A stretch of DNA of 64,000 nt from positions 1 to 64,000 of the forward strand of contig JALAGF010005068.1 of NCBI GenBank assembly GCA_030167865.1, written 5' to 3'. Of the stretch, positions 4,159-63,998 are shown piece by piece. Origin of the DNA: Craspedostauros australis (Eukaryota). Positions within the stretch are counted from its first letter, which is position 1. Each line of letters opens with the position of its first letter. Position numbers and translations under genes: made by a program. The notes beneath the pieces are model-generated. The model saw only the letters and a list, made by a program, of their open reading frames with translations. It did no database searches and was not told the DNA's origin.

Positions 4159-5632
4159 TTGAATCTCAACTCTATTCTTGACTTCCTTCATGATCAAGGG
4201 GCGCCATGGGCCTTCAGGTCAGATGGAGCGAACGAACAAACAAGCATGGAGGTTCAGCGCACACTTCGAAACCTACACGTTGCAATGGAGAACAGCGAAC
4301 CAGAGCAGCAGAACCAGAACCCCAGCAGAGCTTCGCGCTATGAAATGGTTGAAGTACCACACGCTCGTCCTCCTCGATCGAACTGGAGCCCCACCTCGTG
4401 CATGGTTCCTCACCTGCAAGTACTTGGCCAATGTTCATAATGTGATTGCCGATGAATCCAACCGATATGCAATCCCAACAACAGTCAGGCATGACGAAAC
4501 AGTCGATATCTCACCTTCCTGCACTTCACGTTGTATGAGCAGGTATACTACATGGATCCTCACAGCTCTTTCCCAGACCCCAAGGAGCAAGTGGGTTACT
4601 GGATGGGAGTAGCACACTCCTGTGGTGATGCCCTCACGTACTACATCCTCACCGACAAGACACAACGTGTCATCATCCGCAGCGTTGTCCAGCCTGTCCA
4701 CAAGGACACCATCAACAAGTGACTCCAATTCTCACATGAACTCAACCCTCTCGTTGCTCACCCAACACCTGATGTTCCTCTCATGTTCGATGACGAACGC
4801 ATACCAATAAACACCAAGCTCAGAACATTCCGTCGAACCATACGCAGAAAGCCATGAAAGAAGGTACATCGCATCATCATGCAAGAACAGCAACAGCCAT
4901 CATCAAAGAATACAACAATCCCTGTCGCACGAGCGAAGCCATCGCAAACCAAAATTCCCAGCAACATCATCATCCCCACCGACCAACCCACGGCGATACC
5001 ACCAATCAAATCAATATCACCCACATCAACCCTACAACCACACACTGAAAGGTGTCGGAGTACCAGAATACTACCTTGGCAGAAACGTCGAATCACTGGA
5101 TACAGAATGGCAAACTCACAACATCCACACCGCACTGTCAGCCACAACATACATCACGAACTCAACCACCAAACTGGAGAAGATGCTGCAATGCACGTTC
5201 CCACATGCACAAGTCCCCATGTCTGAATCATACCAAACAGAACTTGACAATACTCCTCTGCTCAACTCAACGAATGCAAGCAAACATCGTTCCCTCATCG
5301 GAAGCGCCAACTGGATCATCACACTTGGCCGATACGACATCCAGTTTGCCGTCATGGCAGTATCCCGGTTCAGCATGGCCCCTCGCAAACGTCACATGAG
5401 AGCGATGAAGACAGTATTTGAATACCTCAACCATCGAAAGCAGGAGCGGCTATTCTGCGATCCAAACACACCACTCGTCCATCATACACTTGATGGATAC
5501 TCCAGCCAATGGCAAGAATACTACCCAGAAGCACGTGCAGAGATTCCACATACTGACATCACACCGAAAGGAGCAAAAGCAACACTGACCGTCTACGTCA
5601 ACGCAGACCACGCCCACGATTCCGTCACCAGA
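4159..5632 (+). mobile_element. pol: Degenerate Ty1/copia (CoDi-like) pol remnant: integrase core, RT C-terminus and start of RNase H; RT core missing
   Basis: Frameshifted ORFs with FRSDGANEQ...EPEQQNQNP, GYWMGVAHSCGDALTYYILT, SLIGSANWIITLGRYDIQFAV and YVNADHAHDSVTR, all homologous to the intact pol at 56528-60394; no YxDD segment present. Confidence 0.88.
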
Positions 5633-5806: not shown

Positions 5807-6708
5807 TGTCGAGATGTACATGTGAGTATATGTCGAGATGTACGTGTATATGTGCATCGTTCACCCGTTATTCTCTCATACGCACTTGGNNNNNNNNNNN
5901 NNNNNNNNNNNNNNNNNNNNNNNNNNNNNNNNNNNNNNNGATGTACGTGTATATGTGCATCGTTCACCCGTTATTCTCTCATACGCACTTGGACGGTATA
6001 ACTATACTCGTGTCGATAGTATAATGTGATTCGTCAGAATTACAGCGGAAATGGAACACACGAAAATGAGCAAGATTTCTGGAGGAAATTTGCAATCGAC
6101 GATTTCTGAGAGAATTAGAACATCGTCCGTCCATCCATCAATGGTACCAAGAGAATCTCGAGGTACTTCCTAACTAAACCTCAGATGACGATATCATCTG
6201 ACAGACTGCTGCATCACCAATGGAACATGACATCTGGAGAGCAGAAGGACGCCTACTGACGTCGACAGGATGTCATCGTGTCACCATGTCGACATCTGTC
6301 TCCAAGTCAGAGCAGGAGGCGAAGATCCGATAACCGAAGGGCATCAGCATCATGGATACTGAAGGTGAACTTCAAATGGTAAGTACTCATGGGGTAGGAG
6401 CCAGTACTGAACGAACGGAGTGTCGAATACGGAGTACGCATCAAACACGGAGCATCGTGTAGCACGAGCACATGATGTCGAGAGAGAGAGAGAGAGAATA
6501 CAGAGAGGAGCGAGAGAGCATCTCGCATACCGACTCATAGTCGGAGACCGAATCTACAAAACAGATTGAAGCATCGAGAGCATCGTGCAAGAGAACGGGT
6601 GTACACCGAGAGGATCGGAGTAGCCAAGTAATGAAATAGCAAACGAACAACTATCAACCAACACCATCTTCCACGATTGTAGGTTACTGTGAGCGGAACT
6701 TGCCAACA
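5807..6708 (+). repeat. LTR (family B), TG...CA, spanning an assembly gap
   Basis: TGTCGAGATG...TTGCCAACA; reverse-complement homolog of 39062-39862; contains a (GA)n tract; ~50 bp duplicated either side of the N gap. Confidence 0.85.
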
Positions 6709-47360: not shown

Positions 47361-49282
47361 AGACACTGAGATCCAATGTTAGAACCTAATCGTAGATGGG
47401 TTTGAAGATACCGCACCGAGAACGTAGAGTGATCAAGTCGTTGTTGTTGGTGAGGAGAGTGTTTGTTTACNNNNNNNNNNNNNNNNNNNNNNNNNNNNNN
47501 NNNNNNNNNNNNNNNNNNNNNNNNNNNNNNNNNNNNNNNNNNNNNNNNNNNNNNNNNNNNNNNNNNNNNNNNNNNNNNNNNNNNNNNNNNNNNNNNNNNN
47601 NNNNNNNNNNNNNNNNNNNNNNNNNNNNNNNNNNNNNNNNNNNNNNNNNNNNNNNNNNNNNNNNNNNNNNNNNNNNNNNNNNNNNNNNNNNNNNNNNNNN
47701 NNNNNNNNNNNNNNNNNNCTTCTCACGATGTTGCTAGTAGTACGATCACACGATTGATCGTATTCACTTGAGAAGGTCATGGCAAGATTCGCACGTGTCA
47801 CATCCAAGATCCAAGTCTGTCCTGATTGGGCAGATTGGCTCATCTTGGCAAGAAATCAATTTCCGCGACATTTTGGATCTGTGATTGAGGGAAAACGATT
47901 CTTGCGACGCGAAATGCGACACAAATTTGACACAACGGATTTTCGACCAAAATTTCCGTTCGGAACGGAAAAGGTATAAAAAGTGGAGATTTCTGATTGG
48001 TCGACGGGTGTCGCTATTGTTAGAGATTTAGCGTGCGCTAATATCCAAGGAATCAAGATCATGTGATAGTCGTGATATTCTGACATGTCCAGTGACACCA
48101 GGTGCATCAGTGGGCATGTGGTAACAGCAATTAGGAGACAGCCTTATGATGGCAGGGATGATGTATGCATCCTGCTGACATTGACAGGCCAAGATATATT
48201 GACACCATGAGAGTCCAAGATGAGACAAGATCAGACAGAGATGAGGAAAGACCCAAAGGGGAGAATAGCATGAGATACTGCGCAATCAGCATGACAACCT
48301 TGGGCAACAAAGTAGAGAGAATTCATGATGGACCACAATGGCATTGAACAGAACAGTAGGAAGACCTGATGATGAACCACAACAGAATCAGGAAAGATAG
48401 CAGAAATAGTGCAAGAATGCACCAACCTGGGATGAATGAGATCTTGTTCTCACAATCTTATCAATCATCAATTGACTACAACTACCATAACTTAGCAAAA
48501 CCAAAGACCAAACATAGCAGACTCCACCTGATGGATTGATCAGCCTGGCAGTGTAGTAAGTGTAGTGTTTGGTGCCCTGACCTGTATGCAATTGTTGATT
48601 ATCAAGGACCTATCATTGTCATTGATCCATGGCAGATGAAGACTATCAGTAAGTATCTGGCATCATCAGTTGTACATATGACAAGTCCAATGCAATAGAA
48701 CACTCTCTAGGGTAGAGTCCTGTACCATCTCTCTCTCTCTCTCTCTCTGCAGATTGTTATGTACCGTGGAACAGTGTTTCAGCCCGCTTTCACCGAAGGA
48801 ACTGGATCGTCCAAGAAAGGAACATCCGGGTCGCATGAATCGAACTGCATTCCAACGAAATGAGCAAAAGTTCATTCCGACAATCCGAAACCTCGTCCCA
48901 AACACAACCCACACAACACGACGCAACGCAATACCCATGGCGACGCAACCAAACACAGCACAACCAGACCATTTCCACCACACACTTTTGTGCAACCATT
49001 TCACCTGCTCCATACCACTCCACGAGCACACACAACCGTACGATTAGTCCCTCACCTGAGCGGTTGCTTCCTTCCGCCAAGAACAGAGGTGACATCAGAT
49101 ATCATCGACGCTTGCTTGCTGGCGATAGGAGTAGTGTGGCACAGAAATTTCACGCAATTGGAAAGCACAACAACGTGACTGCTGCTCGTTCTTGGCAGCA
49201 GCGCAAGCAAGACTTGCTCTCATCAAACAAGCGAAGGCGAGAAGTGAAGCAAAGGAAGACATTCGGCAAAGAGATTATCGAC

Positions 49283-52200
49283 ATGGAGGCCGGCGGTCAG
49301 AGCCAGATGCCGGAAACCGCGCCCAATGGTCTGATTGCGGCACTGGAAGCCAACTATCATGCACAGAACAAGTGCAATGGACAGAGGCCTATTTGCGTGC
49401 GGGATTGTCTGCGATCGAAGTCGTTCCCGCACCCCAAAGTCAAACGGCTCATCAAGCAGCAGATCGATGAGTTCAAGCAACGCGGCCGGAGCAATTCTGA
49501 TTCGCCGGCGCTGTTTCATCGCATCCAAGAGGCATTCGATGCGCTGCGACGCAATCAGATGGCTGAGCTGCCACGCATCCAAAATGCACTGACCATGACC
49601 ACAGCAGCAACGGCAACTGCCAACGCTGAATCGGCGCACCGCCATGCGGACATCATGTCGCCATCGTCGATGCTTTCGTCTGTCTCGCAAAGCCCCACGT
49701 CGGCACCTCCGTCGCCGACACAACCATCGCGACCCTCAGCGCAAAAGTCGGCACCGCAGAATCCGTACGCATCGCCGCGCAAGACGGAAACAGTGCCAGC
49801 AACGCAACCGCGCCGCCCTTCCCTGTACTATCTATCTCACGCATCCACAATCATGAGATTCATCCAGTACCTTGTCGAATTGCGAAAACAATCCATCTCG
49901 TTGTCATCGTCATCATCATCATCGAATGATCCTTCGCCTGTTCCATTGCTATCCCCACCACAGCTGCAGCAACTGGATAAGTGGGTGATCGAGATCATCC
50001 AGAACCTGGGGAGGGTCATATGCGCGCAGCTAAACGGCGCAAAACATGATGCCATGGAATGCATACTGGGAAGCGCAGAAATGCGCCAGCGAGATGCCGC
50101 AAGTTCCATGGATGACGATGGTGCCGTTGCGTCGGGCGATCAAGAAGGGTGTGAAGAAGAGGAAGAAGAGCAAGACAATGACGACGACGACATCGCTATG
50201 GAGGAGTGGTGGCATGATCGATCCGACACTCGGACGATTTGCTCCATTCGTCATGTATGCATTCACATCTTCATTTCCTTGTTGCGATGCAACGCGTATG
50301 CTCGTGAACGTCCGCAATTGGCCGGACCCCTCTGGAAGACCATGGGCGAAATCATCTCCGCGTTTCACGTTGCGCAAGAACGGCACAAGCAACATCAGCA
50401 ACAACAGCTGCCGCAATACGAATCATCGCCTTCGATTGCGGAGGCCGATATTTCGTTTCAGACTCTCGTGCCATCAACGGTGATGGAGGAGGCAGTACGG
50501 TCGCTTTCAGATCTATGCAACGAAGGATGCAATATGCTGTTGAATACGGCGGCTCAAGTCCTGACGGTACCATCAAGCAAGCTCTCAACCATCCCACCCA
50601 GGAAGGCTCTCGAACGGCATGGCAAATTGGTGAGCTTCCTTGTCACGCGTCTTGTGGTCATGGTCAACGCAATCTGCCAAGCCAAACATGCAAAGGTCTT
50701 TCGAGTCCCTCAAGAATCGGTATCATCACAGGCCGTCAACATCATGCTGCGATTGCGTGGACTGGCGATGGCATTGTCCGTGATGGATGATGAGTACGCA
50801 CGCGAGGGTGCTGCTGCGACGAAGCAACCGGCAGCTGCGAGAGACGTCGTGCATACTGCCGTTCTACAAATCCTCATGGATGTCGCCGCACGCGTGGAGC
50901 GCCAGATGATGGGCATATTGGTTTGCACTCCCACCAAGCATGCCATGATCGCAGACAAGTCGGCAGCGTCATCGATATCTATCTTTCAGTTGCGTCACGC
51001 TGCGGTACAACATGTAATTCAGGCCCAGTGGGATGAGGAGAACAATCAGAATCAAGGAAAGAGACAAAAACAAGGACAACGTTCACAACCGCTCCATGAT
51101 GCCAAACACTACTTATCGCGGCTGGCGTGGTCATTGGGGAAGGCCCTGATGCTGCGACGCATTCTGGCCGCAACGTCAACCGTTGAATACTCATCCCTTC
51201 GACACCTTGATGACACCACTGTTGAGAATCTGTTGGCTGTCATCGAGCAGTTGCTTTGCGTGACCCTTGCGGATTGCCAAACGCCGTTGCTGATGTCCAT
51301 CTGGAAGGACGAGACGAACTTCGCGAAGAAGGACGGCGCCGGAAATCAAGCTAAACCCCCGCTCATCCCGTCCCTTTTCCTCCTGTCATCATCCATCCAG
51401 CATTCGACGAAGATGCTGCTCATGATCGGAGAATGGCATCCACCGACCCTCTTCCGACGAGCTTCAAGTCGTGGCGGTGAGTTGAATGGGGCTAGTGTGG
51501 CTTGCAAACAAGGGGAGCACCATCCGAAGATGAAGTTGCATCGACTGATGATTGCGTGGCTTGGCCATGCATCGTCCCAGCCGTTTGCAAGAGAAATCAT
51601 GGTTGCGCTGTTTCACTTGTTCATCGTGTCCGTGTCAACGCCAGTCACGTCCCCATCCACACACCCCGACACATCGCCATTCGTGCTTGTGGAGACGCTG
51701 ATCCAGCTCGTCTTTGAACCTCGCACATCCACGCAATTGAGAGAGAGCGTCGCCTCGATCCTGATGAAAGTATTCAATACGACCGCAAACCGCTCAACGC
51801 TATGCACGCATCTTCGAACCGCTTTCGAACATCGATTGCATCACTTCCTCCGACAATCTGACAGTACGCCGTTAGAGACCAATGCAAAGAGGAAGCGGGC
51901 GAGCGGAGGGCGAGGGAAGAGAAGCTGTACATCCCGGCACTTCCAATTTGCAAACGACAACGAGATTCTGCGTCGTGTGCTGCGCTGCTTTGCGATGAGC
52001 AAATTTCGAACAGGGATTCCGCAGCAGGAGCGCAAACAACCAGGTCGCCATCATCAGCAGCACACACAAGTTTCGGAGAGGGAGGGATTGCTGCTGTCCG
52101 TGCTGCAATCCTTCTGTGAGACATTGATTCAACACCATGGACCAGCAATTTCACCCCAGTATCACGATAATCGCCAACAGCAGCAGCGGCGGAGCCAGCG

Positions 52201-53653
52201 GGAATGGAGCAAGCACATCGCGGGGTATCGTGCTCAATCCGTCCCTATCCTGCTCTCGATGTTGAGCGGATTGCCACCACAAGATCGTTCGTTGCAGAAA
52301 CACTTGAAGGTCGATGCGGCGTCGCTGCATCGGACAATCTTGGGCCTTCCCTTCCAACGCCGCACCGGAAAGAAGAAGCACGCCCAGGTGGACAATCAGG
52401 TCGAGCATCGTCACGACCTCGTACTGGATGATCGAAGCATTTCCATCTTGGATGCGATTTTCGCATTGTACGCTTGCTGGGCTGTCGAGCAGAAAGGATC
52501 AACAGGCGCGGCGACGGCCGTGCCTGTTGCGGAACTGATCCGGTTGATCACCGCAGTGCTGGATGCCACCAGTCGCGATTTTGCGTCGCATCAGAAAGGG
52601 CAAACATCATCAACCGTGGACACGGCTGCCATTTGCAGATTGCGGTTCACTGCGATCCGCAGCTTGCGATTTGTTTCGAACGTCATTCCAACCGACTGCC
52701 ACAGACAGGACTTGCAGGTGAGGCTGATCTACATGCTCATGTAATCTGATTGCATGCTGTACCAGCGGAAACGCCAGCTACTCGTGTGATGTGAGGAACT
52801 AACTCTGCCTATGCTTGCACTTCTCCATGCACTTGCCTCAATATTGCTTTCGTGGATCACAGCAACTTGCTGCTATATTCTCGAAGCTGCTGTCCACATG
52901 CGCAGACAAGGTGCCAATCATGTCATCGGCGTTGACCGCGTATGAAGGATTTGGAAAGCGGTTGCATCCGGGCCACCGCCACATCCTTCGCTCTTGCTGT
53001 CCTTCAAACGCTTTCCCCATCTTCCAATGCCGCTTTCAGCAGTTGGTCTGGCGAGGCAAGAGCAAAGCAACCAAGGTAAGTGGATTCGTTGGTGGTTTCA
53101 TTGGTTTTCGTTGGTTGGTCCATTGGTTGGCGGTTAGCAGGCCGGTGATGCACAGTTGAACCGATGAGCGCAGTTGGGCGTATGACTAGTAGTCATGAGA
53201 CCGACACACATCTCAGCATGCACATTCGCTGTCTCTTTCTCGAACCCCCTTGCTTTATCCTCATCATCGGTGTTGGCGCCGTCATTGATTTTCGCCATCG
53301 TTGATGTCGTTCTCAATCAGCTTGTGTGCCCGCGGCTCCACCCGCACGCCGCTGTCGGCATCATCGCGGGGTCATTACGCACGCAACGAACGCACGGCAG
53401 AAGCATCTTCCCGAGCCCTTCGGTCATCACCGTGCCGACAGATTCGTACGTATTCCAAGTCACGCTACCCAGCGGGCTCAAAGCAACAGTGCTGATGCCA
53501 CCCGATCCAAGCTGCTGGGAAGAGATCCAGAATATGGCCGGCATGGCGGAGGAAAACGACGATGAGCCTCCAGCAGTCCGGTTGCTGCGCCGCTCTGTGC
53601 CGCATCACGGCAGCGGAGGTTGCGACCTTATCCTGCAGCAAGCGCAAAAATAG
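49283..53653 (+). CDS. Large helical protein, 3 exons (49283-52717, 52863-53075, 53321-53653); weak resemblance to FIRRM/C1orf112
   Basis: 1294-aa ORF plus two phase-0 GT-AG introns (GTGAGG..CACAG; GTAAGT..ATCAG) joining ORFs 52815 and 53195 in frame; start could be upstream at 48860. Confidence 0.75.
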
Positions 53654-55877: not shown

Positions 55878-56181
55878 GGAGGCATCTGAGACTGTTCGGA
55901 GCAATACGTGCTCAGATCTACTCTACTCTGCTCCACTCTACTCTGATACTCTTTTGAAGTATCGGTTGGTGCCTTCTCTGAATGAGAATCCTTACGGTGT
56001 TGGGGATGACGATGTTGGTGTTGTGGTATGCTGATTGTGGTCATGGTCTGCGATGATCGATGATGACTGTCACCAGTTACATCCAAGAATGATGGAACCG
56101 TGGAAATCACGAGGGGAAATACTCTTTTCTTGTATTTTCGAACCCTTTTTGCGTCTTTCGACTGCTCTAAACTCATGGTTT

Positions 56182-56356
56182 CAAGTTACGACACACGTGA
56201 AACTGATTTAGAGTGAAAAAGAGTAAAGATGCAGATTATGAGTCTTATCGATGTCGTATGCGTCAACGTATTGGCTGCATTACTGTGTCGTCCCTGATTG
56301 GTAACAGCGCCTATCGTGTAACGCCGTTTCAACGGTTTCATACATATCCCGGTTTG
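56182..56356 (-). repeat. 3' LTR (175 bp)
   Basis: Identical by eye to 62403-62577. Confidence 0.95.
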
Positions 56357-56358
56357 GT

Positions 56359-56364
56359 CCCCTC
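56359..56364 (-). other. Short polypurine tract GAGGGG
   Basis: 2 nt (AC) upstream of the 3' LTR on the minus strand. Confidence 0.65.
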
Positions 56365-56527
56365 GATGCGCGGTGGCTGTGCTAGCCGTCGTATCGTCAC
56401 ATTTTGGTTGCATTCGGGATGTACCTGCTGCATGCCCCACACGTGGACACCACAGGGCGCTCGTCCCACCAACCATGAGCAGAGCCCATGATTGACCACC
56501 CTTGGGTACTATTGCGCAGTGCCGAGG

Positions 56528-59500
56528 TCAAAAGAGGACCCGTTGTGCTTGTTCCTTTCGTCTCGGTCCTTGTTGTTGCTTCGTGAGCATGTCGGATAGA
56601 TTGGTTTCGGATGGTTCGTGCTGTACCACCAAGATACCCGCTGCGATGCTTTCTCTGACGAAGTGATATGCGATGGCATTGGCTTTCTTCCGCAATTGTG
56701 ACTCTGGTAGTGAGGAATTGTATACCACACTCTGATTATCAACCCGTACATCCGCTGGTCCATCCAGAGGGATGCCCATCATGCGAAGCTTGTATCGCAT
56801 TCCAATGATGATCTCGGTTGCTACCTTGAGCGCCGTGAATTCGCTGCCGAATGTGGATGTCTCGATGCTGTTCTGTTTCTTGCTGTACCATAGTATCGGT
56901 GATGTGTTTAAAAACAAGAGCACGCCAGTGCGTGAGCGTCGCGTGACGCGGTCACCTGCATGATCAGCATCAACAAAGCACGTCATTTGGACTTCCTTTC
57001 CGCGTGGCGGTGGCATGTCAGCAGGTAGTTGTTCATGAGCATCAGGGTAGAAATCGTTCCAGTTGGGTTGCATCACAGGCGGTTTGTCAATGTATGCATC
57101 ATCAAAAACAAGGCGAGAACGATCGTGAGATTTGAGGTATGCGAACATATGAAAGAGAGCATGCAAATGACCGATTCGAGGCGCAACACAGTATGATGCC
57201 ATCATCGACGTTTCACAGCATATGTCAATGCGTCCGAGCTCAACAGTCCAGCGCAGGATGCCAATCAATTGCTGATAGAATGTCGTTTGCTCTGTGTCAC
57301 ACAGTTGCGATCCGTCCAATTCCGGTCGATAGTTGTTTGGTAAAACGCTGGGTGCTTTCGTCTTCAGTCGTAGATTGTGTTCGGTGAGGTATTTGGTGAC
57401 GATCTTGAGAGCGGATTTGATGTATTCTTGTGAGCCCATGCTCCATTTGGGGCGTGATGGATCGGCAGTGAGGTGGAATTGTGAGATAGTAGATCCCAGA
57501 TAGGTTGTTGGAGGGCCAATGGAACTCGGTTTGAGGAAAAAGTGTGAGTCAATCGCATCAAGGATGCGTCGTGGTTGTTTGGAGACAGCAAGGATGTCGT
57601 CGGTGTACACGAGCACGTATTCGTAATATTCTGACCCATCGCTCGCAACAGCTGGCTTCATCCAGACGTCGCTGTCAGCACGGCAGGATGTGAATCCCAA
57701 CGAATCGCGTAGTGTCTCGGCCAAATGTGCTCTCCATGCTGCTCCACTTGATTTCAATCCATACAGGGCCCAACAAATGATTGCGATCTTCCCTTGGTCG
57801 GATCCGAACTCCGGACCACATCGTGTGTATATGCGTTCCCGGCATGGGGCGTTGAGGTATGCATTCTGAACATCCGCGGCAAGGATGTCCAAGTCGTTGA
57901 GTGCAGCGATCAAGAATGCAATGCGTACGCTTTCGCGTGACACCACACTCGCGTATGTGATCGTCGCAGGCGTTTCCGTCATGTGTCCCCCAGCGACAAG
58001 TCGCGCCTTTCTTGTGAGGTCCACCTTGATGGCGAATATCATGTGGCATTCCATGTATTGGTAGCCCACAGGATCGGGAGTATCAAGCTCCTTGATATCA
58101 AATGCTGTTTGCACGGCCTTCATCTCTTTTGCAATAGCTTGTCGCCACAGATCCGTGCCTGTAGCTGCATCGATCGCAAGTGCGTGACGCACTGAGGTAG
58201 GGAGCTCCACGCCAAACATCTCATTCTTTCGGACGTGTCGCCGCTTCGTTGCCATGATGATGCGTTGTCGTTTACGTAGGGTATGTGGCACCCACCACTT
58301 GAATGCAGGTTCGTTGACGAGCTTGTTGTCTGCAGCGTATTCGGCAACGCGTACTGGGTCGGCTTCTTTTGCGTCGCGTAGGTGGATCCAGGATGTGGAC
58401 CCGTCCTTCCATCGGATACAGAGCTTCCAGCCTTTTGTCGATTTGGAATGAGGAGAAGGAGAAGAAACAGAGGGCAAACGTTTGTGATCGATGATTTCGT
58501 CCATCAGCACAGTCGTGTATCCGTCGTCATCGATGCGCGCGTAGATGTTTTCCGCAATTTGGTTGGCGCTGAACACCTCGTGATGTCCATCGAGAAATTC
58601 AACTTCGTATTGGGCAGTGTCAAGCATAGGATTGGGATGCGAGCGGCCGATGAGGTTGCCTTCTGTGTCTCGTTTGCGTTGTTTGACTGTTCCATGTTGC
58701 ATCTCGTCCCCTGTCGGTAGAATGACTTTGGTTGCAATGTATTTGTCGAAAGTCGCGCTGTCAACATCGTCTGGTTCCACGATGTGTTCCAATGGTTCGG
58801 TGTTCTGCAGAATGGCAATGTCTGCTGCCGTATCATCAACGTCGTCGCCATTGTCGTCGATTGTGATGCCTTCCATTCGTTGCTTCCATTTGGATCGAAG
58901 TGTGTCCATGAATTCGTTGCACTTGTGTGCAATTACGTCGCTGTGTGTGTCATCGTGTGAGAGAGGTAAAACAGAGGATTTAGAAACAACAACGCCATTG
59001 GCAGTGAGGATGTACGAGCACATGGCATCACCAACAGAACGGCTTGGCCCGAGGTAGCGACCAAGTTGCTTGACGTTCATTGACGCGTCTTGGATGTTGA
59101 TATACCACACGAAGTCAAACCAGCCGAATTCAGCAATGTGAGAGATGTCAGCAGTGTCACCGGACAAGATGGTGGCCGGTGTCTCGCCGTGAAGATCATG
59201 GATGGCGAGTGCAGTGTGGCTGCGTATCTCAGCACAGTATTCGAAGCAGTAGTCCCACAGGTACTCCGGTGTTTCTGTCGAGGTCATCAACCGTCGGTAA
59301 TGTCGTCGCAGTTCGCGGATGGTGGCTTCTGCCTTGTTCTGATTGTGGATGTATGCTTCGATTGGTCGGATGGAGACTTGTGCTCTATGTAGCTTGCGAC
59401 GGAATTCGCCAGCTACGAGCTCTTTGGCGTTGTCAGGGATGATGGTGTGTGGGATACCGTGGTCACGAAACAGTTCGTCGAGTGTGCGATGTGCTTCCTT

Positions 59501-60394
59501 GCGTTCTGCCATTGGGTACACCCGGACCCAGTGAAATGGGGTGCAGTAGATCATGGCGCATTTGTTGCCGCGAATCGATTTGGTCTTTGCGTGCATGGTG
59601 TCGGCGTATAATTGGGTGTTGAGCCGACGATATCGTAGTTGCATGGCATATGGGTTGAGGCGGCGTGTTCCCGACGAATGACGAAAGTCGCGGATGGCTA
59701 GTTGTGTTGTTGCTTCAAGAGTGCGTGATGCGGCTTCCGTTCCGATACGCCAACGTTGTGCGAGGACATCGGGTGTGATAGTCCCCTTTCGACTGGATGT
59801 GTGCGTGCCATGGATGTTGATGGACGATATGGTTCGTTGTGATGAGAGAGATGCTCGGATGGCATCTTCGTCGTCTCCTGACGACCATTGGGAGGGGTCC
59901 CATGTGGCCTCTTGTGTCATCATGACGTGGATGCAGTCGCGATCGGATTGGACTTCTTGTTGTGTTGGCTTCCTGATGTGGAAGTAGGATACGGTGCCTT
60001 GCAATCGTAGTGGGATGTGTAGATCGTCGTCGGACGAGACCACAGAGTGGTCTTCCGGTTTCCGTTCATGCTCTTTGATCATGAGCAGAGGAACATCATT
60101 CACGACTATACCCGCAGCCCTCATTTGATTTGGGCACAACAAAGGATGTTCAAGACGAGGAAAGTAGATCGATTGTGGAAAGAAAAGAATAAATGTTTGA
60201 TATGTAATTGGATCATCGTATGCTACCGCAGCTGTGACGATTGGTGCATTATCGATGGATCCAAGTGAGTCAATAAAAGGGGTTGCAGTGACGGTTTGAT
60301 CGGTCTGATGCACAATGTACGCAGTGTCACCAAAGCAACATGTATCCGCATGCGAATCGAGCTCTGCCCGTGGGGTATCAGATGACAGAGACAT
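56528..60394 (-). CDS. pol: Pol polyprotein: protease, integrase, chromodomain-like segment, reverse transcriptase, RNase H (1288 aa)
   Basis: LDSHADT; YADT / PDNAKE / QNKAE; KARLVAGG, LYGLKSSG, YTDD; VDADHAGD, STFGSEF, VDN, SDMLTK. Confidence 0.97.
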   Translation of the reverse strand: MSLSSDTPRAELDSHADTCCFGDTAYIVHQTDQTVTATPFIDSLGSIDNAPIVTAAVAYDDPITYQTFILFFPQSIYFPRLEHPLLCPNQMRAAGIVVNDVPLLMIKEHERKPEDHSVVSSDDDLHIPLRLQGTVSYFHIRKPTQQEVQSDRDCIHVMMTQEATWDPSQWSSGDDEDAIRASLSSQRTISSINIHGTHTSSRKGTITPDVLAQRWRIGTEAASRTLEATTQLAIRDFRHSSGTRRLNPYAMQLRYRRLNTQLYADTMHAKTKSIRGNKCAMIYCTPFHWVRVYPMAERKEAHRTLDELFRDHGIPHTIIPDNAKELVAGEFRRKLHRAQVSIRPIEAYIHNQNKAEATIRELRRHYRRLMTSTETPEYLWDYCFEYCAEIRSHTALAIHDLHGETPATILSGDTADISHIAEFGWFDFVWYINIQDASMNVKQLGRYLGPSRSVGDAMCSYILTANGVVVSKSSVLPLSHDDTHSDVIAHKCNEFMDTLRSKWKQRMEGITIDDNGDDVDDTAADIAILQNTEPLEHIVEPDDVDSATFDKYIATKVILPTGDEMQHGTVKQRKRDTEGNLIGRSHPNPMLDTAQYEVEFLDGHHEVFSANQIAENIYARIDDDGYTTVLMDEIIDHKRLPSVSSPSPHSKSTKGWKLCIRWKDGSTSWIHLRDAKEADPVRVAEYAADNKLVNEPAFKWWVPHTLRKRQRIIMATKRRHVRKNEMFGVELPTSVRHALAIDAATGTDLWRQAIAKEMKAVQTAFDIKELDTPDPVGYQYMECHMIFAIKVDLTRKARLVAGGHMTETPATITYASVVSRESVRIAFLIAALNDLDILAADVQNAYLNAPCRERIYTRCGPEFGSDQGKIAIICWALYGLKSSGAAWRAHLAETLRDSLGFTSCRADSDVWMKPAVASDGSEYYEYVLVYTDDILAVSKQPRRILDAIDSHFFLKPSSIGPPTTYLGSTISQFHLTADPSRPKWSMGSQEYIKSALKIVTKYLTEHNLRLKTKAPSVLPNNYRPELDGSQLCDTEQTTFYQQLIGILRWTVELGRIDICCETSMMASYCVAPRIGHLHALFHMFAYLKSHDRSRLVFDDAYIDKPPVMQPNWNDFYPDAHEQLPADMPPPRGKEVQMTCFVDADHAGDRVTRRSRTGVLLFLNTSPILWYSKKQNSIETSTFGSEFTALKVATEIIIGMRYKLRMMGIPLDGPADVRVDNQSVVYNSSLPESQLRKKANAIAYHFVRESIAAGILVVQHEPSETNLSDMLTKQQQGPRRKEQAQRVLF

Positions 60395-60430
60395 GCTGAC
60401 GGATGTGAGCCGTCTCGTATGGCCTTGCGG

Positions 60431-61918
60431 TCAGGAACGTCCTTGTTGGTTGCGACGGGTAGCCATGCTGCCGATCCCGGCTTGGTTGTTAGTGCCAGTT
60501 TGGTTGTCGCCTTGGTTCGTAGCGTCACGTGGCCCATAATGCCCGTCTGTCTCGTCGTGAGAGCGTTTCGATGGCGTGCTCCTGCCCACCGACATGACCC
60601 CACGGCGCTTGTCTCGTTCCGCACGCATTTCAAGTGCCTTGGTCTTCTGTGCGGATGACATGACCGACCATTCGTCGGGTGAGTAGTGGCGATCCGTGAT
60701 GACCATGTTCGGATCATATTTCTTGGGTTTGCCTTGACCTCCACGGCCACCCTTGCTTGGTGTTCCATTACGGTTGCCACGACCGCCCTTGCTGCGATCC
60801 ATCGAGCCAATGGAGCGTCTGGGTGACGCGATCTGTTTGTGGTCAATGACTTCGCTCAGGACATTGATGGCCCCCGGTAGGTCTTCGCGAAGGGCTTCGT
60901 TGATCTTGATAGCAACGCATGCACTGTCGAGGCGAGAATCACGGATACCATCAAGGAAATGGCGCACTTTCGCCGCGTTCACGAGTGGTTCACCGCATCG
61001 TGCCATGTCTTCGAATGCACCTTTCATGATCTGTGCATATCGTTCGAAGGAGAACTGACGCGATTTGCCGTCATAAAAGCTGGTTGCAATCGTCTTGGAT
61101 GCTGCTGCCTTGGTGCGCGCCTGAAAGGAGTCGCTGTGATAGTGTTCTTTGAGTGCGATGAATGCTGCACGACCATTGCGTGCACGTTCGAAGCCTTGGA
61201 CCCAAGCCCATGCAGGTCCGCCATGAGTGACATGGCGAACAACCTGCCACACTTTCGCATTGTCTGCGTCGTAGCAGATACCTTCATGGATTGCACGGTC
61301 GATCAGTTCCTCCTTCATGGTGGGCACACCAAACCCATCATTGATGGCCGGTGTGCGGTCTTCGGGTTTACGTGAATCCTCACGGATCACATAGGAAAGC
61401 GGGGTGTCAAGCGCACCATGGGTGTTCTCCAAGTAGTTCTGGATGTCTTCGAGGCTGTCACGGACTCGGTCCACTTTGACCAGCCGTTCTGGCATATCCA
61501 TTTCGGTTTCCTTCTTAATGCGTTGTTCCTCAAGAAAGAGTTCCCACAATGCAACAAGGCGGTCCATTGTTGCCTCTGCTGCTGTAAACGGGCGTTGAAT
61601 GCGTTGGAAATGGAATCGTGCGTAACGTAGTTGACGCAGCTTGGTCTCATGCACCCAGCCGATGCTGATGCCTGGGTCCTTGATTTGTGGTGGTACATTG
61701 CCTTTGGCTCCTGCCTTGTAGGCGGGGTTTTCGATGAATCCACTACCATCGCAAATGCGCTTGCACAGGGCAGTAACGCCTTCATCGGTGATGGAGAGGA
61801 AGTCATCAAATTTGGTCAGGCCTTGGTCCTCAAGGGCGTCGACGATGTCATCGTCTGGGAAGCTGAGTACGTTCTTGCAATAGTCACGTATTTCGTTGGT
61901 GTTTGCAGCGGCTGCCAT
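60431..61918 (-). CDS. gag: Gag protein (495 aa)
   Basis: Position upstream of pol; PLSYVIR, RNGRAAF and FSFERY motifs; RGG-rich basic C-terminus. Confidence 0.92.
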   Translation of the reverse strand: MAAAANTNEIRDYCKNVLSFPDDDIVDALEDQGLTKFDDFLSITDEGVTALCKRICDGSGFIENPAYKAGAKGNVPPQIKDPGISIGWVHETKLRQLRYARFHFQRIQRPFTAAEATMDRLVALWELFLEEQRIKKETEMDMPERLVKVDRVRDSLEDIQNYLENTHGALDTPLSYVIREDSRKPEDRTPAINDGFGVPTMKEELIDRAIHEGICYDADNAKVWQVVRHVTHGGPAWAWVQGFERARNGRAAFIALKEHYHSDSFQARTKAAASKTIATSFYDGKSRQFSFERYAQIMKGAFEDMARCGEPLVNAAKVRHFLDGIRDSRLDSACVAIKINEALREDLPGAINVLSEVIDHKQIASPRRSIGSMDRSKGGRGNRNGTPSKGGRGGQGKPKKYDPNMVITDRHYSPDEWSVMSSAQKTKALEMRAERDKRRGVMSVGRSTPSKRSHDETDGHYGPRDATNQGDNQTGTNNQAGIGSMATRRNQQGRS

Positions 61919-62381
61919 GTTGATGATGTTCGTGTGTAATGTTGTTGCTAATGATAAGATGAAGGAAGGAAGTAGCGAAGGAAGAAAGGTTTTGTGGTGT
62001 CAAGAAAATCACACTGGGACATGGTGTATTTTCGACGTGAAAATGGTTCAACGTGTGTTTTCCGCGGTGTCGATCCGCGATGAGAAGCACAGACCGGGCA
62101 ACAAGGCACACGATCTTTTCGCTGATGACAGCGTGTGTCTCAGTAGGGATTTCCGTGTGACCTACGGTCGGTGCGTCCACCAGTGTCATCAACACCTCGC
62201 AGTGCGAACGGTGAGATTGCATCCCGTTGACGCCGGTCACATGGCGTCAACACACCATGGTCAAAGAGGATGCAGCACAGTACAAGCAGTGCCGGCTTGG
62301 TGACGGTCCACCCTCGGAGCGGGGTCCCAGTATTGTCGTCACCTCTTCAGGCGGTCCCTGCACGCTCGCACATGCCCGCAT

Positions 62382-62402
62382 GAGCGGATGGGTCTGATAA
62401 AC
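62382..62402 (-). other. Putative primer-binding site GTTTATCAGACCCATCCGCTC
   Basis: Immediately downstream of the 5' LTR; loosely similar to tRNA-iMet-type PBSs. Confidence 0.45.
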
Positions 62403-62577
62403 CAAGTTACGACACACGTGAAACTGATTTAGAGTGAAAAAGAGTAAAGATGCAGATTATGAGTCTTATCGATGTCGTATGCGTCAACGTATTGGCTGCA
62501 TTACTGTGTCGTCCCTGATTGGTAACAGCGCCTATCGTGTAACGCCGTTTCAACGGTTTCATACATATCCCGGTTTG
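62403..62577 (-). repeat. 5' LTR (175 bp)
   Basis: Identical by eye to 56182-56356. Confidence 0.95.
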
Positions 62578-62729
62578 GTTTTAGTATCGTCAAGGCCAGG
62601 AAACACATTGCAGCATCGAGTCCTCTGGACTACTGTTATTGTTGTCGTTATCGTTATCGGTATGGCGCAAGCAATTAATCAATTTTATACTCTCGCTCTC
62701 CAGACAAAGACCTTCGTTACACCTTTGCT

Positions 62730-63998
62730 CTAATCGCGAACAACGTACGCGCTTGCGATCTTGGCGATGTCAAAGTCGTGCCACGACGATGGGTTTTCAT
62801 TTCGATTCTTGTGGAGATCGTTGTCGCTGTGGCGCATCTGTTCGATGACGTCTCCGCCCTTGATGACCTTGGCAAAGCATGGATCACCTTCGCCCGGGAC
62901 CTCGTGGTGCTTCTGGGCGCCTGGTCCGTGCAGGCGTGTGTTGTCATTCGTGTTGATGTAGAACGTCGGTCCCAAGCCGGCATACCCCAACGTGAACGTC
63001 TCGTGCGGGTAGTTGTGGGAGTATTCTGCGAAGGTCAGTCCGTTGAATCCCTTGGCGGCGAAATGCTCTGTCTTGGGTTCGAAGGTGCCGAACTTCACAG
63101 GGGCCGCTGCCACGACGTGGGTGGATTTGGTGTGATGGTAGAAGAGGGTGTTGTTCCACAACCCCGCATCGATCACGTCGAGGAACGACAAGACGGAGTG
63201 CGGCATGTGCTCGATCGGTGCCAATTCGATCTCCATCTGCGTCATCGCGGATGGTTTGCCGCCTCCGATCACCTGCACGTTCAGCACGACACGGTGTGGT
63301 CCTTCGCCGTACTTGGCGATGATCTTCTGCCGATCCTCATTTTGGATGTGCATCTGCAGGTCGATCATACGATCATGCAGGGATTCCTGACGGTGCTGCA
63401 CCCAGTTCATCACCACGCTTGTCTGCCGTTGCTGTTCCATTGTCTCATTGTCCAGGTTCATCGCGCTGTGCTGCTGGTGGCGATGTGGCTGTTGCGGTTT
63501 CAGCAGCAGCGCTTCGTCTGCGTTGGATTTGCCATCGGCTCCACTTTTGGTGGGCTTCATCACGGCACCGGACAATGATCCCCACGACGACGTCGGCGTC
63601 AATAGCGCAGGTGCCACGTCCTCTTGTCCCTTGGCGTTGGCAGCTTGCACTTCGTTCTTCAGCAGCCGGAAGGACCGCTGCAGCCGTCGCAGCTGCGCCG
63701 TGACTGTGGAATGCGCGTGCTTGGCATCCAGCAGGGTTTGGTTCGTGTCCTGCATCTGGAGCAGCAAGATTTCAGTCTCAAGGTCGATGCGTTGCGACAG
63801 CGACATCATCGTTTGATGGCGGTGGTACGCGATGGTGGCGGAAAGGATGGCGAAGCCGTAGCTGAAGAACAGCAGCCATCTCCCGAGCGACTTTGCGTAC
63901 TGCGCTTTGCCATAGCCACTGCTGTACCCGCTGCCATGCAAGTTGCGCTTCAGCAGCAGACCTGATTCCGGACAGACACCTGATGTCGAACGAAGCAT
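62730..63998 (-). CDS. Membrane-anchored coiled-coil protein with divergent cyclophilin-like domain
   Basis: N-terminal TM, coiled coil, then YGEGPHRV...IELAP...MPHSV...GPTFYINT...DPCFAKVIKG; start at the window edge. Confidence 0.75.
   Translation of the reverse strand: MLRSTSGVCPESGLLLKRNLHGSGYSSGYGKAQYAKSLGRWLLFFSYGFAILSATIAYHRHQTMMSLSQRIDLETEILLLQMQDTNQTLLDAKHAHSTVTAQLRRLQRSFRLLKNEVQAANAKGQEDVAPALLTPTSSWGSLSGAVMKPTKSGADGKSNADEALLLKPQQPHRHQQHSAMNLDNETMEQQRQTSVVMNWVQHRQESLHDRMIDLQMHIQNEDRQKIIAKYGEGPHRVVLNVQVIGGGKPSAMTQMEIELAPIEHMPHSVLSFLDVIDAGLWNNTLFYHHTKSTHVVAAAPVKFGTFEPKTEHFAAKGFNGLTFAEYSHNYPHETFTLGYAGLGPTFYINTNDNTRLHGPGAQKHHEVPGEGDPCFAKVIKGGDVIEQMRHSDNDLHKNRNENPSSWHDFDIAKIASAYVVRD

Follow-up and report, generated by a model that had tools for sequence, protein, structure and literature searches.

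The window analysed here, 64,000 nucleotides (nt) of contig JALAGF010005068.1 from the Craspedostauros australis assembly GCA_030167865.1, carries on its minus strand a Ty1/copia-type long terminal repeat (LTR) retrotransposon whose gag and pol open reading frames (ORFs) share one frame across a single TGA. The element is complete and young, or recently inserted, as indicated by its open gag and pol, by LTRs that are 100% identical to each other, and by a pol match to the copia-type reverse transcriptase family RVT_2 (60.3 bits; cut-off 31.6). Each LTR is very short, at 177 nt; in the orientation of the element the LTR termini read AC...TG, without TG..CA, and no clear target-site duplication was found at the element flanks. 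The sequence 3' of the 5' LTR, GTTTATCAGACC, is one that we take to resemble the initiator-Met transfer RNA (tRNA) primer-binding site of copia elements.

An earlier note on this DNA, made from the sequence alone, had described gag and pol as lying in one frame split by a single UGA-C, with the frame open from the stop into the protease and with identical LTRs. All of this is borne out. The bases that it quoted are present, no other stop interrupts the 1797 codons, and the 1300 pol codons are open in the gag frame. On the minus strand the junction reads CGT TCC TGA CCG CAA GGC CAT ACG AGA CGG CTC ACA TCC GTC AGC ATG TCT. The putative protease active-site motif, LDSHADTC, begins 24 codons past the TGA, and its Asp lies 25 codons past it. 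A Pfam scan of the putative protease region gave no match. The AlphaFold model of this region, with a predicted local distance difference test score (pLDDT) of 50.7, is too poor for a firm fold match; with this low-confidence model, 42 of the 50 Foldseek matches listed were retroviral proteases, all at E>=0.42 and none at E<=0.001. Further along pol, a weak match to the integrase family rve (E 0.056, 14.1 bits, below the cut-off of 32.6) lies 5' of RVT_2, and this order agrees with copia elements. The coordinates of all features of the element are collected in Table 1.

Table 1. Features of the retrotransposon and of its gag/pol junction, in positions of the window.
Feature	Positions	Strand	Basis or remark
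LTR retrotransposon, 6398 nt	56182-62579	-	identical 177-nt LTRs at both ends
5' LTR, 177 nt	62403-62579	-	direct repeat, 100% identity to 56182-56358
gag ORF, 495 codons	60434-61918	-	ORF list and translation
In-frame TGA (UGA-C, next codon CCG), proposed readthrough site	60431-60433	-	sole stop in 1797 codons
pol ORF, 1300 codons, in the gag frame	56531-60430	-	ORF list, translation
Linker from stop to protease motif, 23 codons, open in frame 0	60362-60430	-	translation
5-base-pair hairpin GACGG-7nt-CCGUC	60398-60414	-	-4.8 kcal/mol alone
In-frame ATG, 13 codons past the stop	60392-60394	-	sequence
Putative protease active-site motif LDSHADTC	60338-60361	-	position at head of pol and motif
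Reverse transcriptase domain, copia type, Pfam RVT_2 (PF07727)	57479-58060	-	E 2.8e-16, pol residues 791-984
pol terminator TGA, next codon CCT	56528-56530	-	
3' LTR, 177 nt	56182-56358	-	purine run GAGGGG directly before

The TGA falls where related Gag proteins end as well. A Pfam scan of gag found no family, and the protein carries an Arg/Gly-rich stretch, GGRGNRNGTPSKGGRGGQGKPKK, and no CCHC zinc knuckle. A conserved C-terminal Gag motif, G-x-G-x-x-M-x-R-R, sits right before the stop. With gag as the query, a protein search gave 16 matches, and the closest 11 (28-41% identity, 392-536 amino acids (aa)) terminate within a few residues of the end of this Gag, just past the same motif. The family is very large: an exhaustive profile search gave 6962 representatives at E<=0.001, and among the best 150 of these none is fused to pol and the maximum length is 574 aa. 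When 164 proteins were rescored locally, 74 reached the end of the profile; 73 of the 74 stop no more than 42 residues from that end, and 64 no more than 15. A search for longer gag forms recovered a single fused relative, P0017 (1800 aa), whose gag is 29% identical and whose full gag-pol is 37% identical over 1739 aligned positions. Relatives with a single ORF thus do occur, at a greater distance. The nearest gag clusters in the ESM Atlas contain proteins of 434-481 aa, and the first of them is 93% Eukaryota with Bacillariophyta as the commonest phylum (known for 15 members). The host group of the element is probably the diatoms.

We used the gag alignment to scan metagenome contigs and recovered 29 loci, numbered here with the prefix L; scans of viral contigs and genome contigs with the same alignment gave no relatives. 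Eighteen loci cover the junction, and the remaining 11 end before it or, in the case of L028, are rearranged. In 17 of the 18, an in-frame TGA is found 20-42 codons 5' of the protease motif and pol lies in the gag frame. All 17 use TGA at this place, and TAA and TAG are absent. The sole exception, L010, is 91% identical to L009; a single nt is deleted within its TGA and three further indels fall in the following ~130 nt, showing that it is a decayed copy. Approximately nine deep lineages are represented (the window, L001, L002, L003, L004/L009, L005, L015, L018, and a cluster of nine copies from mat metagenomes). The Gags of these lineages are 33-47% identical to one another, and even the most similar pairs that are informative have nearly saturated synonymous sites (proportion of synonymous differences, pS, 0.58-0.84). 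Two relatives are complete and have exactly this layout, L004 with 503 codons, TGA and 1362 codons, and L009 with 536 codons, TGA and 1368 codons.

Since a neutral stop would drift to TAA or TAG, and since a defect would not be common to relatives, we conclude that the UGA is selected as such. Judged by these alignments, the in-frame UGA is a designed feature and no defect of a single copy. The earlier note had argued against decay and had called for a conservation check across copies; made on diverged metagenome relatives, that check agrees with its argument. Once the relatives are counted, the arrangement of stop and frame is far beyond chance, which is not the case for the hairpins. To our knowledge, in-frame stops between gag and pol are rare in copia elements. 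The same had been said of this arrangement before, but it does not apply inside the present lineage, where an in-frame UGA is the rule.

Past the stop and into the first part of the putative protease, protein-level constraint acts in frame 0. Over windows of 45 codons from the stop, protease motif included, the proportion of nonsynonymous differences (pN) between L004 and L009 is 0.21 versus a pS of 0.78, and the ratio of nonsynonymous to synonymous substitution rates (dN/dS) between L015 and L024 is 0.16. The indels that give rise to linkers of 20-42 codons all keep the frame. In an alignment of eight sequences the L, D, D, T and C of the protease motif are invariant, and across the lineage the motif can be written LDS(H/N)xDTC (relatives have D-S/T-H/N, and the fused P0017 has D-S-R). 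The usual retropepsin D-S/T-G is present in no member, the Gly after Asp-Ser/Thr being replaced throughout the lineage (the window, L001-L026 and P0017).

The nucleotides following the stop are biased in the direction associated with leaky termination. The base directly after the UGA (+4) is C in six of the nine deep lineages: CCG follows in the window, CGG in L001, CAC in L002, CUAG in L003 and L005, and CUG in L004/L009. UGA-CGG and UGA-CUA are described as 'type II' readthrough motifs (PMC3542737, PMC3159437), and a study of fission-yeast retrotransposons cites C, CU and CUAG directly 3' of UGA as favouring readthrough (PMC10085805). TGA is also an ordinary stop in the host, terminating 8 of the 16 long non-element ORFs of the window as well as pol. 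The pol terminator is itself TGA-C, and the frame beyond it is open for 113 further codons (56189-56530, minus strand), through the 3' untranslated part and nearly all of the 3' LTR; this open frame is not seen in the relatives L004 and L009.

RNA folding brought no comparable signal. Local, pseudoknot-free folding of the sequence 3' of the stop was compared with that of dinucleotide shuffles. The hairpin GACGG-(7 nt)-CCGTC that had been noticed downstream of the stop exists, but as a signal it fails: 9 of 200 shuffles fold as well as the hairpin alone, its context is at shuffle level (z -0.24 for 42 nt, 0.11 for 100 nt and 0.17 for 150 nt), and it is not common to relatives. The fold TGACC-GCAA-GGCCA, which had been suggested to form over the stop, reaches -1.1 kcal/mol (z -0.10) and does not recur in relatives, so we set it aside. 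In L002 only, a 7-nt spacer is followed by an extended stem-loop (z -2.09), and 10 of 200 shuffles are equally good. A side observation concerns L015 and L024, which share a 32-nt block (ATACGGGCC...CCTGAAG) at +16 to +47 after the stop (L015:957-988) with 100% identity. The Gag C-terminal regions of these two loci are only 46-50% identical, and the codons flanking the block differ at most synonymous sites. The block may be an RNA-level element or the product of recent recombination.

In-frame stops at the gag/pol boundary have been described in several other systems. Readthrough of such a stop to make Gag-Pol is established in gammaretroviruses (PMC2194720) and reported in fission-yeast gypsy elements (PMC10085805). 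The closest likeness within the superfamily, and the precedent that the earlier note had invoked, is Tca2, a Ty1/copia element of Candida albicans with one frame and a single UGA between gag and pol, whose Pol is reported to come from LTR-driven gag-pol RNA (PMC2194720). Tca2 differs in that its stop is followed by a purine-rich spacer of 8 nt and a predicted pseudoknot (PMC2194720), nothing comparable to which was found here. It also represents a single fungal family, in contrast to the large lineage described above. In murine leukaemia virus (type III), Gag-Pol arises when ribosomes read through a stop that lies in frame between gag and protease (PMC2194720); the present element has UGA-C and no evident structure. 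The fission-yeast Ty3/gypsy elements Tj1, Tosmo1-3 and Tcry1 also have gag and pol parted by a TGA in frame, set in the short conserved context GAA-TGA-CT, and the published account, as far as it was available, invokes no structure and reports that the stop is essential for transposition of Tj1 (PMC10085805). Their TGA-CT is also found in L003, L004, L005 and L009, whereas the window has TGA-CC. They differ further in belonging to the gypsy superfamily, with domain order PR-RT-IN (protease, reverse transcriptase, integrase), and the codon before the stop is not conserved in the copia lineage studied here.

Type II viral readthrough sites, as in alphavirus nsP3/nsP4 and in the replicases of tobraviruses and related viruses, share UGA-CGG with L001 and UGA-CUA with L003 and L005, but the viruses mostly add an extended stem-loop ~8 nt downstream (PMC3542737, PMC3159437), which among the present sequences only L002 has and the window does not. 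Drosophila copia and other members of the superfamily with a single ORF run from gag into pol without a stop; for copia, splicing is reported to set the Gag:Pol ratio (PMC2194720). The CoDi elements of the diatoms Phaeodactylum and Thalassiosira are copia elements with short LTRs and a Gag often without CCHC (Maumus 2009). Some CoDi families lack TG/CA termini (PMC2806351). Our element, whose short LTRs have no TG..CA ends and whose Gag has no CCHC, fits the description of some of these families and might be called 'CoDi-like'.

Taken together, these data make it likely that Gag-Pol is made by programmed readthrough of the UGA. In this model, the genomic RNA would be translated from the gag AUG, and the majority of ribosomes would end at the UGA-C to give a 495-aa Gag. 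A small fraction would decode the UGA with a near-cognate tRNA and stay in frame 0, giving a 1796-residue Gag-Pol with protease, integrase and reverse transcriptase/RNase H. The Gag:Gag-Pol ratio would then be set by the leakiness of the UGA in its local context. That ribosomes read through, how efficiently they do so, and which amino acid they insert are matters that we infer from sequence.

Several points weigh against this model. The +4 base is G in two lineages (L015 and L018) and A in the mat-metagenome cluster, leaving three of nine without C, and the context in the window, UGA-CCG, is neither the canonical CGG nor CUA. Because the pol terminator is likewise TGA-C, leaky and final stops cannot be told apart by this context alone. 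The folding comparison revealed no 3' structure that is stable or common to the lineages (z -2.09 to +1.96 for 10 sequences at 100 nt and 8 sequences at 150 nt), and many type II sites are described as using an extended stem-loop (PMC3542737, PMC3159437). The lineage counts on which the conservation argument draws are not phylogenetically independent. Finally, the 300-nt Tca2 junction gave 0.3% readthrough in S. cerevisiae, equal to an ordinary control stop, and its authors concluded that the bypass is non-canonical (PMC2194720); Tca2 therefore stands as a precedent for the arrangement of an in-frame UGA, and its support for readthrough is weaker than the earlier note implied.

The main rival to context-driven readthrough is a non-canonical bypass of the kind proposed for Tca2, in which context alone would be insufficient and distant cis elements, a trans factor of the host or element, or low-level splicing would be needed. 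The Tca2 junction failed in yeast even though Pol is made from gag-pol RNA (PMC2194720), and in our sequences no local structure stands out at the junction, the stop contexts vary between lineages, and the identical 32-nt block in L015 and L024 hints at an RNA-level element in that sublineage. We consider this unlikely, given that UGA-C, UGA-CU, UGA-CUAG and UGA-CGG are enriched, as context-driven readthrough predicts. Splicing was addressed with a crude scan for in-frame GTRNGY..YAG introns (the donor pattern being our own choice) whose excision would take out the stop and whose 3' end precedes the motif; eight of nine sequences, the window included, had no candidate, and candidates were present in L002 only, which is a weak negative. 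Pol could also be made independently of Gag, through reinitiation at the ATG at 60392-60394, an internal ribosome entry site, or a transcript from an internal promoter. The in-frame ATG 13 codons past the stop of the window is in keeping with this, and so is a weak internal promoter reported in the Tca2 junction (PMC2194720). However, between the stop and the motif an in-frame ATG is present in only 5 of 10 representatives (the window, L002, L004, L005 and L018) and absent from L001, L003, L009, L015 and L024. Reinitiation at 60392-60394, which the earlier note had offered as its second possibility, is therefore unlikely to be the general mechanism. In eukaryotes, ribosomes that have translated an ORF of 495 codons reinitiate inefficiently. 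Independent expression would not require pol to be in the gag frame, yet pol is in frame 0 in all seven sequences with an intact gag, despite many indels, and there is constraint right after the stop even where no ATG precedes. Production of Pol independently of Gag is thus quite improbable.

Two further explanations would deny the UGA any role as a leaky stop. It could be a nonsense mutation in a dead copy, its position coincidental; one copy was examined in the genome, and an error in the last cycle of reverse transcription would be compatible with identical LTRs. We regard this as very improbable in light of the same in-frame TGA in 17 of 18 related junctions, the lack of any fusion among the 150 best gag representatives, and the placement of the stop exactly at the gag/protease boundary. 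The UGA could instead encode selenocysteine, or be a sense codon in the host. It speaks for this that the conserved codon is UGA without exception and that diatoms have selenoproteins. A scan of 56000-62800 at E<=10 found neither a selenocysteine insertion sequence (SECIS) nor any other Rfam family inside the element, the only match being small nucleolar RNA sR44 (E 0.35) at 56002-56058, outside it. The window contains no tRNA genes, TGA terminates half of the 16 non-element ORFs and also pol, and a single in-frame TGA occurs in 1797 codons. Recoding as an amino acid is the least credible reading, and we give it almost no weight. Programmed readthrough of the UGA remains the reading that we prefer.

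Other observations on the element and its surroundings should also be noted. At pol residues ~1160-1200, past the integrase region, the stretch GWKLCIRWKDGSTSWIHLRDAKEADPVRVAEYA is conserved with P0017 and looks chromodomain-like; Pfam gave no chromodomain match in pol at E<=10. A chromodomain at the integrase C-terminus is reported for CoDi-A, one clade of diatom copia elements (PMC2774666). Among the mat-metagenome copies, L020, L021 and L025 have a common frame change between gag query residues 225 and 226, which suggests amplification of a defective master copy. The 64-kb window holds no further copy of the element and only one RNase H-like stretch related to it, at 5054-5632 (plus strand), which matches the RNase H end of pol with 27% identity (E 5e-19) and adjoins a run of N at 5890-5939. 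This is a remnant of another, distant copia-like element. A 1294-codon ORF at 48860-52744 (plus strand), with a run of N at 47471-47718 just upstream, matches no Pfam family at E<=1e-5 and does not resemble the gag-pol of the element.

A stop between gag and pol in diatom copia elements is not new, since Maumus 2009 mentions 'one or no stop codon' at this place in CoDi elements. The parts of that paper available to us do not analyse stop identity, conservation or readthrough, and in the literature searched we found no description of conserved UGA readthrough in diatom copia elements, nor of the identity of the stop or its mechanism. The alignments add to this by showing that an in-frame UGA is standard throughout a very large lineage, that it is always UGA and mostly followed by C, and that no evident structure accompanies it. 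A broader proposal, that a large diatom-associated copia branch keeps the in-frame UGA as a universal Gag/Gag-Pol switch without local RNA structure, is speculative and in our view rather unlikely to hold in full. If it did, either diatom ribosomes would read UGA (mostly UGA-C) at a usable rate by context alone, or a hidden stimulator would exist, for which the 32-nt block of one sublineage and an interaction of Gag or Pol with release factor would be candidates. Stress induces copia elements in diatoms, and for CoDi elements nitrate limitation and aldehyde stress are reported as inducers (PMC2806351). The translational state of the cell could in that case tune the Gag:Pol ratio and, through it, transposition.

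An in-frame gag/pol stop is an accepted way to make much Gag and little Pol in retroviruses and some retrotransposons. Of the copia elements, Tca2 is the single case that has been studied. The junction described here would give diatom biology a concrete recoding site, in elements known to respond to stress. The lineage also offers a natural context series for UGA readthrough in a stramenopile, with CCG, CGG, CAC, CUG, CUAG, AGC, GCA and GCU after the stop. For annotation, it would mean that 'gag-only' ORFs and pol ORFs without an ATG should be joined as one readthrough gene.

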